A stretch of DNA of 25,373 nt from Escherichia coli (GTDB taxonomy: Bacteria > Pseudomonadota > Gammaproteobacteria > Enterobacterales > Enterobacteriaceae): NCBI RefSeq assembly GCF_003334765.1, contig NZ_QOWT01000045.1, one strand, 5' to 3'. Numbering within the stretch: the first letter of the stretch is position 1; each line of letters starts with the position of its first letter. The position numbers were made by a program, and so were the translations under genes. Shown one piece after another: positions 1 to 6,126 of this stretch. The notes beneath the pieces are model-generated. The model ran no database searches, was not told the DNA's origin, and was given only the letters and a program-made list of their open reading frames with translations.

Positions 1-75
1 TTATCGTGAGAGTAATTCATCGGCACGTTAAATCATATCAGGCGTAATACCACAACCCTTAAGTTAGCGCTTATG
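1..75. mobile_element. Terminal segment of an IS186-like insertion sequence; the element continues beyond the window start
   Basis: Reverse complement of 53..75 reads CATAAGCGCTAACTTAAGGGTTG, which I recognise from memory as the IS186 terminal inverted repeat. It lies 21 bp past the hokE stop, the arrangement I recall for K-12. Transposase ORF is outside the window. Confidence 0.5.
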
Positions 76-96
76 GGATTACTCCCCGCACAACGG

Positions 97-249
97 CTAC
101 TTCTTCGGTTCGTAAGCGAGAACAGCCTTAAACTCAATATTACGTTCCTTCACCGTAAACTCACACAGCGAGTCTCCGACCAGAAGCGTAAATCCCAGCA
201 CCGTTAAACACAGCACTATGACTGCCGCAAGGGCATATTTCGTCAGCAT
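97..249 (-). CDS. hokE: Hok-family type I toxin, 50 aa small membrane peptide
   Basis: Internal Met of ORF 97..348 gives [50 protein letters not shown], recognised as HokE. ATG at 247..249 (minus) is preceded by GGAGG with 10-nt spacing. Confidence 0.85.
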
Positions 250-292
250 GTTTATATTGCCTCCATGCGAAGAAGGGACTACCATCCAAATT

Positions 293-352
293 GTTCGGGT
301 TTGGAGTGGCAGCCCCAGGGTTGATAGAAATATCTCCTGGGGCTTCATCTTT
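293..352 (+). ncRNA. sokE: Putative Sok-type antisense RNA antitoxin for hokE (boundaries approximate)
   Basis: Plus-strand promoter-like -35 TTGCCT (257..262), 17-bp spacer, -10 TACCAT (280..285). A 7-bp stem CCCCAGG/CCTGGGG (313..319 with 336..342) is followed by a U-rich tail (343..352). The transcript would be antisense to the hok mRNA leader including the GAGG/ATG at 346..361. Confidence 0.45.
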
Positions 353-692
353 CCAGACCTCAGAGTAAACCTGAAACCGGAAAGCTTCAGGCACCCGCCG
401 TTATCTTACCCTTCCTCAACAAAATAGCTGTTTATTTATACAGTGAGTCCTGTTTCGGACTTCTCACTCCTCATTTAATCAACTGAAGCTGAACCCGTTT
501 TTTTCTGCATGACTCAATCGTCAAAATTCTTCGCCACCAGTCAGCACTGCCATAACTTGTCACATTGCAAAAGTAGCCAAATTGCTTCAGGCACCATCAG
601 TTCACCATCACCAAAAAAAAGAAACATTCCAGAACTTCCGCATCTCGCCCAGCCGCTCCGACTTCTATACTGAATAGAAAACGCCAACATAA

Positions 693-1820
<1,128 letters not shown>

Positions 1821-1885
1821 GCCGGGAATTGCCTTACAGAAGAATATCCCTGACAATGGTGTTTTAACTTACATTTAACAATGTT

Positions 1886-2134
1886 ATGAAACACCCTTTA
1901 GAAACCTTGACCACCGCAGCAGGCATTTTGCTGATGGCTTTCCTCTCTTGCCTGCTGCTGCCCGCCCCCGCACTGGGGCTGGCGCTGGCACAAAAACTGG
2001 TGACCATGTTCCATCTGATGGATCTTAGTCAGCTTTACACTTTATTGTTTTGTCTGTGGTTTTTAGTGCTGGGCGCTATTGAGTATTTTGTTCTGCGCTT
2101 TATCTGGCGACGCTGGTTCTCGCTGGCGGATTAA
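1886..2134 (+). CDS. ybdJ: Small inner-membrane protein YbdJ, 82 aa, two hydrophobic segments
   Basis: [27 protein letters not shown]...; size and position match YbdJ between ybdK and ybdF. Confidence 0.75.
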
Positions 2135-2198
2135 ACGTCGATTATCGCCGTACTTCGCGGCATACTTTGCTTATTCTCCTTCGCCTAAAGGAACGTTT

Positions 2199-2567
2199 AT
2201 GGATAAGCAATCACTGCACGAAACGGCGAAACGCCTGGCCCTTGAGTTACCCTTTGTCGAGCTTTGCTGGCCTTTTGGCCCGGAGTTCGATGTTTTTAAA
2301 ATTGGCGGCAAGATTTTTATGCTGTCGTCGGAGCTACGCGGCGTCCCCTTTATCAATCTGAAGTCCGATCCACAAAAATCCCTGTTAAATCAGCAAATAT
2401 ACCCAAGCATTAAGCCAGGGTATCACATGAATAAAAAGCACTGGATTTCAGTGTATCCCGGCGAAGAAATCTCCGAAGCGTTACTTCGCGATCTGATCAA
2501 CGATTCGTGGAATCTGGTGGTTGATGGTCTGGCTAAACGCGATCAAAAAAGAGTGCGTCCAGGCTAA
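2199..2567 (+). CDS. ybdF: Uncharacterized protein YbdF, 122 aa
   Basis: Internal ATG at 2199 of ORF 2079..2567 gives [27 protein letters not shown]..., 122 aa. The longer upstream extension would overlap the ybdJ 3' end. Confidence 0.8.
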
Positions 2568-2660
2568 AGCGGAAATCTATAGCGCATTTTTCTCGCTTAC
2601 CATTTCTCGTTGAACCTTGTAATCTGCTGGCACGCAAAATTACTTTCACATGGAGTCTTT

Positions 2661-3314
2661 ATGGATATCATTTCTGTCGCCTTAAAGCGTCATTCCACTA
2701 AGGCATTTGATGCCAGCAAAAAACTTACCCCGGAACAGGCCGAGCAGATCAAAACGCTACTGCAATACAGCCCATCCAGCACCAACTCCCAGCCGTGGCA
2801 TTTTATTGTTGCCAGCACGGAAGAAGGTAAAGCGCGTGTTGCCAAATCCGCTGCCGGTAATTACGTGTTCAACGAGCGTAAAATGCTTGATGCCTCGCAC
2901 GTCGTGGTGTTCTGTGCAAAAACCGCGATGGACGATGTCTGGCTGAAGCTGGTTGTTGACCAGGAAGATGCCGATGGCCGCTTTGCCACGCCGGAAGCGA
3001 AAGCCGCGAACGATAAAGGTCGCAAGTTCTTCGCTGATATGCACCGTAAAGATCTGCATGATGATGCAGAGTGGATGGCAAAACAGGTTTATCTCAACGT
3101 CGGTAACTTCCTGCTCGGCGTGGCGGCTCTGGGTCTGGACGCGGTACCCATCGAAGGTTTTGACGCCGCCATCCTCGATGCAGAATTTGGTCTGAAAGAG
3201 AAAGGCTACACCAGTCTGGTGGTTGTTCCGGTAGGTCATCACAGCGTTGAAGATTTTAACGCTACGCTGCCGAAATCTCGTCTGCCGCAAAACATCACCT
3301 TAACCGAAGTGTAA
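2661..3314 (+). CDS. nfsB: Oxygen-insensitive NAD(P)H nitroreductase NfsB, 217 aa
   Basis: From ATG 2661: [53 protein letters not shown]..., recognised as NfsB. Confidence 0.9.
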
Positions 3315-3323
3315 TTCTCTCTT

Positions 3324-3350
3324 GCCGGGCATCTGCCCGGCTATTTCCTC
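3324..3350 (+). terminator. Rho-independent terminator after nfsB
   Basis: Perfect 8-bp inverted repeat GCCGGGCA-tc-TGCCCGGC (3324..3341) followed by TATTTCC. Confidence 0.6.
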
Positions 3351-3373
3351 TCAGATTCTCCTGATTTGCATAA

Positions 3374-4669
<1,296 letters not shown>

Positions 4670-4749: not shown

Positions 4750-6126
4750 TTATTTCCGACGCAGCGTTTTAAATGCCATAAACAGGAATACAATCCACAC
4801 CGGCAGCAGGATCGCTGACAAGCGCATATCATCCATCGTGCACATCAGCAGCAAAATCATGCCGAGGAAGGCAATGCAGAGATAGTTGCCGAACGGATAG
4901 AGCAGCGCCTTAAACTGTGTTTCACGCCCCTGACGTCGCATCGCTGCACGAAAACGCAGATGCGCCAGACAGATCATAATCCAGTTCAACAGCAGCGTTG
5001 CTACCACCAGCGCCATCAGCAGACCAAACGCTTTTTGCGGCAGCAGATAGTTGATTAACACCACCAGCGAAGTGATCGCTCCGGAAAGCATCAGCGAGTT
5101 AATCGGCACACCGCGACGGCTGACGCGAGTCAAAAACTTCGGCGCATTACCCTGCACAGAAAGGCCAAACAGCATGCGGCTGTTAGAGTAAACCCCGCTG
5201 TTATACACTGACAGCGATGCTACCAGAATGACGAAGTTCAGCGCAGAAGCTACCACGTTGCTGTCGAGATTATGGAAAATCATCACAAACGGGCTACTGT
5301 TGGATTTCACTTCCACCCACGGATAGAGCGCCAGTAAAACCACCAGTGAACCGATGTAAAACAGCAGGATGCGATACACCACCTGATTTACCGCTTTTGG
5401 AATGCTTTTTTCCGGATCGCGCGCTTCAGCGGCAGTAATCCCAATCAGCTCCAGACCGCCGAAGGAGAACATAATTACCGCCAGCGACAAAATCAGCCCA
5501 TTCCAGCCGGTGGCGAAGAAACCACCGTAGCGCCAGAGGTTGTCGATACTGGCTTTCTCGCCGCCGTGACCAGAAAACAGCAGCCACAGGCCAAAGCCGA
5601 TCATACCGATGATTGCCAGCACTTTAATCAACGCAAACCAGAACTCGGTTTCGCCATATAAGCGCACGTTCACCAGGTTAACGGCGTTGATGATAATAAA
5701 GAAGGCGGCAGCCCAAATCCACGTTGGAACATCCGGGAACCAGTACTGCATATAGATGCCCGCAGCGGTCAGCTCTGCCATTCCCACCAGCACGAACATT
5801 ACCCAGTAGTTCCAGCCAGAGAGGAAGCCCGCAAACGGTCCCCAGTATTTATAGGCAAAGTGGGCAAATGAACCGGATACCGGCTCTTCGACCACCATCT
5901 CGCCAAGCTGGCGCATAATCAGGAAAGCGATGATCCCGGCGACGCCGTAGCCCAGCAATACAGCCGGACCCGCCATCTGAATCGCCGGACCAATGCCAAG
6001 AAACAGACCAGTACCAATTGCGCCACCCAGCGCAATCAGTTGAATATGACGGTTATGTAATCCGCGATGAAGCGTCGGCTCTTGATTCGACGCAGTATCT
6101 TCCGATACGGTTGACGCGTTTTTCAC
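4750..6126 (-). CDS. pheP: Phenylalanine-specific permease (APC amino-acid transporter family), 458 aa
   Basis: ORF 4750..6162; GTG at 6124..6126 gives (M)KNASTVSEDTASNQEPTLHRGLHNRHIQLIALGGAIGTGLF..., recognised as PheP with 12 TM segments. Confidence 0.85.
   Translation of the reverse strand: MKNASTVSEDTASNQEPTLHRGLHNRHIQLIALGGAIGTGLFLGIGPAIQMAGPAVLLGYGVAGIIAFLIMRQLGEMVVEEPVSGSFAHFAYKYWGPFAGFLSGWNYWVMFVLVGMAELTAAGIYMQYWFPDVPTWIWAAAFFIIINAVNLVNVRLYGETEFWFALIKVLAIIGMIGFGLWLLFSGHGGEKASIDNLWRYGGFFATGWNGLILSLAVIMFSFGGLELIGITAAEARDPEKSIPKAVNQVVYRILLFYIGSLVVLLALYPWVEVKSNSSPFVMIFHNLDSNVVASALNFVILVASLSVYNSGVYSNSRMLFGLSVQGNAPKFLTRVSRRGVPINSLMLSGAITSLVVLINYLLPQKAFGLLMALVVATLLLNWIMICLAHLRFRAAMRRQGRETQFKALLYPFGNYLCIAFLGMILLLMCTMDDMRLSAILLPVWIVFLFMAFKTLRRK

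Follow-up and report, generated by a model that had tools for sequence, protein, structure and literature searches.

The first 443 nucleotides of the window, by which we mean the whole 25,373-nucleotide stretch of Escherichia coli DNA analysed here, form, with a probability that we put at roughly 85%, the chromosomal hokE/sokE type I toxin-antitoxin locus in its K-12-type allele, in which the fold-back lock of the toxin mRNA has been severed by IS186. Positions 1-700 are base-for-base identical to E. coli K-12 MG1655, and the annotations of that genome fall on the window as the toxin gene hokE (b4415), the small RNA SokE (b4835) and IS186B with insL2. The original prediction, which had placed the end of an IS186 element 21 nt past the toxin stop of a hokE/sokE locus, agrees exactly with this reference annotation. 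The finding as such is already known: it is contained in the MG1655 reference annotation and its description dates from 1999, the locus having been first described by Pedersen and Gerdes (1999), as relayed in PMC12214031. As an ordinary reference-genome locus it has little importance as a discovery, and the only additions made here are population frequencies and evidence that IS186 has entered hok post-stop hairpins repeatedly and in both orientations.

Toxin, leader and antisense RNA of the hokE locus

The locus has the same gene order in MG1655 (ybdK-sokE/hokE-IS186-entD) as in the window and does not differ within its boundaries; the window itself, taken as a unit, is DNA of a non-K-12 strain. 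Strain TO6 matches the entire window at 100% identity, and divergence from K-12 begins only beyond about 5.9 kb (from approximately position 5887). The genes follow one another as hokE, ybdK, ybdJ, ybdF, nfsB, ybdG, pheP, cusABFC, cusRS, nfrBA, ybcH, envY and ompT. On the 3' side of ompT, an alpha/beta-hydrolase gene and remnants of prophage tail-fibre-assembly genes were observed at 23466..24950 and 25134..25339, a position at which K-12 has appY and the end of the DLP12 prophage instead. Thousands of E. coli records match the hokE region at 100% identity.

The toxin gene was predicted to be an intact Hok-family reading frame of 50 amino acids, and this frame is indeed present on the minus strand at 249..97, where it ends with a TAG stop (99..97) and corresponds to the annotated HokE (MG1655 b4415; WP_000956455.1), a name on which PGAP and RefSeq agree. 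The Hok/Gef family consists of peptides of about 50 amino acids that have a transmembrane helix at the N-terminus and match Pfam HOK_GEF (PF01848), and residues 5-46 of HokE match this model with an E-value of 9.2e-8, covering all of its 42 positions. The NCBIfam models HokA and Hok also match HokE, with scores under their curated cut-offs. The strong Shine-Dalgarno sequence that had been claimed is GGAGG at 264..260 (minus strand), 10 nt 5' of the ATG; it is invariant across the 12 aligned hokE units and shares bases with the -35 hexamer of the putative sokE promoter, which is on the opposite strand. The codon for Tyr46, TAC at 114..112 (minus strand), is situated in a UACG motif and is the reported site of A-to-I editing by TadA, which converts Tyr46 to Cys and affects 40% of the hokE mRNA in K-12 (PMC12214031). 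The expectation that the peptide would be toxic when overexpressed is borne out by the literature, in which overexpressed HokE serves as a toxic control (bioRxiv 10.1101/2025.08.07.668861).

Upstream of the toxin gene, the hokE mRNA leader with its Sok target region was located at 396..241 (minus strand) by an Rfam match and by paralogue alignment. The match, to RF01794 ("sok"), spans the full model (positions 1-157) and scores 84.4 bits (E 4.8e-19), the gathering score being 59, so that the leader has the conserved sequence and structure of hok/sok leaders; RF01794 was the sole Rfam family detected in the 25-kb window. Since the match is on the hok sense strand, the model recognises the mRNA leader that bears the Sok target, and not the Sok RNA strand. 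Alignment of 12 hokE units further revealed compensatory changes in the leader hairpin, from CCAAA/UUUGG to CCGAG/CUCGG. Judging from the paralogue alignment, the hokE mRNA would begin at position 396 (minus strand) with the tac element GGGUGCCUGAAGC. The same alignment suggests TAAGAT (408..403, minus strand) as the probable -10 hexamer: it aligns with TATAAT of hokC and TAGAAT of a hokX-like paralogue, at an equal distance from the GGGUGC 5' end.

A feature absent from the original prediction is a LexA (SOS) box, CTGTTTATTTATACAG, at 428..443, which has the form CTGT-N8-ACAG and lies 32-47 nt upstream of the presumed mRNA 5' end. It is the only match to this pattern in the 25-kb window, with at least one match found in 23 of 100 shuffles, and it is invariant in 12/12 hokE units from diverse strains. 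By its sequence, the hokE promoter thus has the overlapping CTGT-N8-ACAG box that characterizes promoters of the LexA regulon. The literature on the SOS regulation of hokE is mixed. The gene is listed as an SOS gene with a LexA-box heterology index of 4.9 (PMC11228462; named as an SOS gene also in PMC1891008), and an SOS-induced hokE transcript has been reported at the RNA level, according to PMC1891008, which cites Fernandez De Henestrosa (2000). In one RNA-seq study, AZT did not induce hokE (0.47-fold) and no lexA dependence was seen (PMC11228462), and deletion of hokE together with five other SOS toxins produced no persistence phenotype (PMC8406316).

These reports bear on an alternative reading, according to which hokE is still a working SOS-inducible toxin: cleavage of LexA would raise transcription to a level at which SokE is outrun, and mRNA lacking the fold-back lock would be immediately translatable. 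This reading is favoured by the intact reading frame, Shine-Dalgarno sequence and LexA box, by the SOS-induced transcript reported in PMC1891008, by the detection of hokE mRNA with 40% editing at the site that creates Cys46 (PMC12214031) and by the toxicity of overexpressed HokE (bioRxiv 10.1101/2025.08.07.668861), but it accords poorly with the six-toxin deletion strain that has no persistence phenotype (PMC8406316) and with the RNA-seq data on AZT and lexA (PMC11228462). We consider a working SOS toxin improbable. Since the hokE mRNA is present, is edited to 40% and has been reported as an SOS-induced transcript, the K-12 hokE locus is nevertheless not silent.

On the plus strand, the MG1655 ncRNA b4835 maps onto the window as the 60-nt antisense RNA SokE at 293..352. 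A putative sokE promoter can be read from the sequence at 257..285 (plus strand), exactly as it had been described: TTGCCT (257..262), a 17-nt spacer and TACCAT (280..285). The annotated 5' end of SokE lies 7 nt further on, and both hexamers are invariant across the 12 hokE units. The terminator hairpin, which had been placed at 313..342, is likewise present, its actual span being 312..343 (plus strand), one base wider on each side; its arms GCCCCAGG...CCTGGGGC are followed by TTCATCTTT (UUCAUCUUU), a U-rich tail. The signals at 257..285 and 312..352 would provide SokE with the promoter and terminator of its own that are typical of a cis-antisense Sok RNA. In the computed fold of SokE (-24.6 kcal/mol, z -2.8), a single-stranded 5' tail precedes a long hairpin, and this is the known shape of Sok RNAs.

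Neither SokE signal was reported by generic sigma-70 and terminator consensus scans of positions 1..720, because the promoter scores 8/12, which is below the threshold, and the stem of the hairpin is interrupted by an internal loop. The blank scans therefore say little for or against SokE. They are what one would expect if the reading frame and the antisense signals were chance features of intergenic DNA beside an IS end, but this explanation is already refuted by the Rfam match above the gathering score (E 4.8e-19), by the Pfam HOK_GEF match and the curated MG1655 annotation, and by the conservation of the locus across thousands of genomes, and we give it practically no credence. A match to mir-1990 at 295..362, which scores 18 bits where the gathering score is 63, was discarded as a chance hit that reflects the Sok hairpin. 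In many genomes, PGAP annotates a pseudogene, "hypothetical protein, frameshifted", at about 218..486 of the window (plus strand), antisense to the hokE start and leader; in all probability it is a false ORF prediction that covers the hok/sok RNA region.

No clear mok frame was found for hokE. The paralogue alignment contains no ATG at the position equivalent to the mokC start, the MG1655 annotation does not include a mokE, and our search for "mokE" returned no relevant literature. An in-frame upstream ATG at 288..286 (minus strand), 13 codons before the hokE start, is kept in all aligned units and has no Shine-Dalgarno sequence; it is a weak mok-like candidate. The corresponding ATG of the hokX-like paralogue starts a uORF of 12 codons, the stop codon of which overlaps the hok start region. 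Two other candidates for mok on the minus strand, an ORF of 83 aa (348..97) and one of 77 aa (394..161), were rejected because they are broken by indels in other hokE alleles.

The IS186 insertion and the fold-back element

The window opens with 75 of the 1339 bp of IS186 (1..75, minus strand; IS186B in K-12). This segment aligns with the IS186 terminus, as had been anticipated, and is identical to the end of IS186B in MG1655. The 23-bp terminal inverted repeat at 53..75 (minus strand) repeats CATAAGCGCTAACTTAAGGGTTG in matching records, and the insL2 transposase gene starts with the ATG at 20..18 (minus strand), its CDS running past the window start in the same orientation as hokE. In three matching records, the full element measures 1339 bp, has perfect 23-bp inverted repeats and contains a 370-aa insL CDS; it thus has the inverted repeats, the length of about 1.34 kb and the single DDE transposase gene of IS186 (IS4 family). 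PGAP names the transposase "IS4-like element IS421 family transposase".

Next to the element, positions 76..85 hold one copy of a 10-bp target-site duplication, GGATTACTCC, the other copy lying beyond the IS and outside the window. The duplication was defined by comparing the junction with strain D7, in which the site is empty (GCGGGGATTGCTCCCCGC); this strain has an identical HokE protein accession, and its entD begins only 121 bp beyond the hokE stop. The duplicated GGATTACTCC lies within GGGGATTACTCCCC, and has the length (10-11 bp) and the G-run/C-run flanks of an IS186 target duplication. The interval between the IS end and the TAG at 99..97 comprises positions 76..96 (minus strand), exactly the 21 nt that had been claimed, and makes up the 5' half of the hairpin that first follows the stop, GCGGGGAGUAAUCCCCGC. 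With its form GGGG-N6-CCCC, this hairpin is the target into which IS186 was inserted; the preferred target consensus of IS186 is GGGG(N6-7)CCCC. The toxin ORF, its Shine-Dalgarno sequence, the Sok gene and the LexA box are all intact in the IS-bearing allele.

To describe the 3' part of the uninterrupted transcript, we rebuilt the IS-free hokE mRNA from strain D7. In this RNA, the post-stop hairpin that serves as the IS186 target occupies nt 308-327, an 8-nt fbi element, AGGCACCU, is found at nt 353-360, and a strong terminal hairpin extends over nt 371-400. When the RNA is folded at minimum energy, nt 1-8 (GGGUGCCU, tac) pair with nt 353-360, with a probability of 0.77-0.87. Such 5'-3' pairing of tac and fbi is the architecture of the R1 hok mRNA. 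The mRNAs of hokC and of the hokX-like paralogue, when repaired in silico, show the same 5'-3' pairing, with a C-G to U-A difference from hokE at position 7. As neither tac nor fbi varies in the 12 aligned hokE units, the covariation in favour of the pairing comes solely from this paralogue difference, and the tac/fbi lock in hokE is a prediction drawn from paralogue comparison and energy-based folding.

In K-12-type alleles, fbi and the terminal hairpin are intact beyond the IS, where they adjoin entD outside the window. With fbi 1349 bp downstream (1339 + 10 bp), the fold-back pairing is lost from the IS-bearing allele, which is a disrupted member of the hok/sok family, as published. It had been proposed that the 3' region of the hok transcript is replaced by the insertion sequence after 21 nt: the region is severed at that point, but it is displaced by 1339 + 10 bp and not replaced. 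The accompanying claim, that the fold-back element is lost while the ORF remains intact, matches the published view (PMC12214031). A search of IS186 yielded neither a convincing fbi-like substitute that could pair with the mRNA 5' end nor a convincing terminator in the hok sense direction.

The mechanism that we propose is as follows. A LexA-repressible promoter would drive a hok mRNA of about 400 nt from the minus strand, and the constitutive 60-nt SokE, made from the plus strand, would pair with its leader. By analogy with R1 hok/sok, the full-length mRNA would be kept stable by 5'-3' pairing, which would also prevent its translation and the access of Sok, up to the time when the 3' end is trimmed. 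IS186 transposed into the post-stop hairpin, 21 nt past the stop, duplicating GGATTACTCC. Transcripts of the resulting allele would run into IS186, in the same direction as insL2, without a fold-back lock, because fbi and the terminal hairpin are now 1349 bp downstream. These lock-free transcripts may resemble the form that is already "activated" and would be captured by Sok at once, there would be no stable latent pool of mRNA, and Sok decay would not lead to killing. The transcript ends (the 5' end at 396 and the ends of SokE), the read-through into IS186, the effect on regulation and the absence of killing are all inferences. Published opinion agrees: PMC12214031, which cites Pedersen and Gerdes (1999), suggests that insertion elements have inactivated hokA, hokC and hokE, and in the case of gef/hokC, IS186 is presumed to interrupt fbi and the processing of the mRNA, the gene being still transcribed and regulated by its antisense RNA (PMC3562002).

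Population distribution and recurrent insertion

The exact IS186-hokE junction of the window is present in 1742 of 5426 complete E. coli genomes, and an uninterrupted hokE site in 3641 of them. In about 285 cases within the same set, IS186 occupies the same hokE site in the opposite orientation; this figure is what remains of 840 records covering 80% or more of a chimeric query once 555 records with a best match of only 80-90% identity are subtracted, and it is in keeping with the spread of the listed matches. The latter class of 555 corresponds to a different paralogue, located between cysH and cas3, that also contains IS186. The disrupted allele is thus found in about a third of complete E. 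coli genomes, and an intact 3' UTR, often with tandem hokE, in about two thirds, which makes K-12 a poor model for the native regulation of hokE.

Many strains have two tandem hokE/sokE units about 500 bp apart (O157:H7, U15A, 22726, 2011C-4251, AHB7), each complete with a LexA box, a leader, an ORF, an fbi element and a terminal hairpin, while K-12-type strains have a single unit. In O104:H4 HUSEC2011 (record 1237..2575 and 3200..4428), two IS186 copies and two hokE genes are found in inverted orientation, and one IS186 is flanked by the reverse-complementary hokE 3' ends GGAGCAATCC and GGATTGCTCC, with no direct duplication. Inverted hokE 3' ends around IS186 indicate an IS-associated inversion in this strain. 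At hokE, IS186 can act as a rearrangement endpoint near the ent/fep and cus regions.

The same hairpin has been hit more than once. In strain LS4 (record 902..2240), IS186 is flipped at the same hokE position, with the same 10-bp duplication, which implies that the two orientations result from independent insertions. In strain S30 (record 902..2414), the cas3-cysH interval contains a hokX-like gene (WP_000956460.1) with IS186 21 nt past its stop in GCGGGGGUAAAACCCCGC, which is the homologous post-stop hairpin of that paralogue. At hokC of K-12, an identical IS186 is inserted 22 nt past the stop; the hairpin is again the homologous one, and the element is turned the other way with respect to hok. 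IS186 has thus made repeated use of the hok post-stop hairpin as a target.

What is the significance of this recurrence? Target choice alone could explain it, because the hairpin fits the strong sequence preference of IS186, and it does so in three paralogues and in both orientations. IS186 might then be a functionally neutral passenger in a preferred hairpin, and hokE might not be a post-segregational killing module in any allele. Chromosomal hokA, hokB and hokC that are free of IS elements did not give post-segregational killing (bioRxiv 10.1101/2025.08.07.668861), so that the IS may not be what abolishes killing, and a neutral passenger is a possible reading of the locus. The conservation of the lock argues against neutrality: fbi, the terminal hairpin and tac do not vary at all among the 12 units, IS-free or repaired, each copy of a tandem array included. 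This conservation speaks for a constraint on the lock where it is intact, and the removal of the lock should at least alter the fate of the mRNA. We regard a neutral insertion as somewhat unlikely, and retain the reading in which IS186 severs the predicted fold-back lock.

One may also go further in the opposite direction. That IS186 enters hok post-stop hairpins recurrently is supported by the two orientations found at hokE, and by the insertions in hokC and in the hokX-like paralogue. It is speculation that this disarming was possibly selected, and that an IS co-oriented with hokE couples its transposase to the SOS response via read-through from the LexA-controlled hokE promoter, and we think it very unlikely that recurrence, selection and SOS coupling hold together.

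Comparison with known systems

IS186 is known from another chromosomal site. SaiSree is said to have reported in 2001 an IS186 insertion at lon, in a G/C-flanked target and with a 10-bp duplication, which abolishes a promoter. The two insertions differ in their effect: a promoter is lost at lon, whereas a regulatory element in the 3' UTR is severed at hokE. A closer parallel is offered by hokC (gef)/sokC-IS186A of K-12, which has the identical 1339-bp IS186, a homologous hairpin, GGCGGGGAGUGAUCCCCGCC, and a 10-bp duplication. The hokC copy of IS186 is opposite relative to hok when compared with hokE; furthermore, hokC has an annotated mokC and no LexA box.

The R1 hok/sok locus is the prototype of type I toxin-antitoxin and post-segregational killing systems. 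With it, hokE/sokE shares a Hok-family toxin, a cis-antisense Sok RNA composed of a 5' tail and a hairpin, and a leader that matches the Rfam model. The 5' tac/3' fbi pairing, the post-stop hairpin and the terminal hairpin are shared with R1 by IS-free hokE alleles only. Neither the R1-type nor the mokC-type mok start codon is found in hokE. Finally, hokE differs from R1 hok/sok in being chromosomal, in having a LexA box upstream and, in the present allele, in that its fbi element has been severed by IS186.
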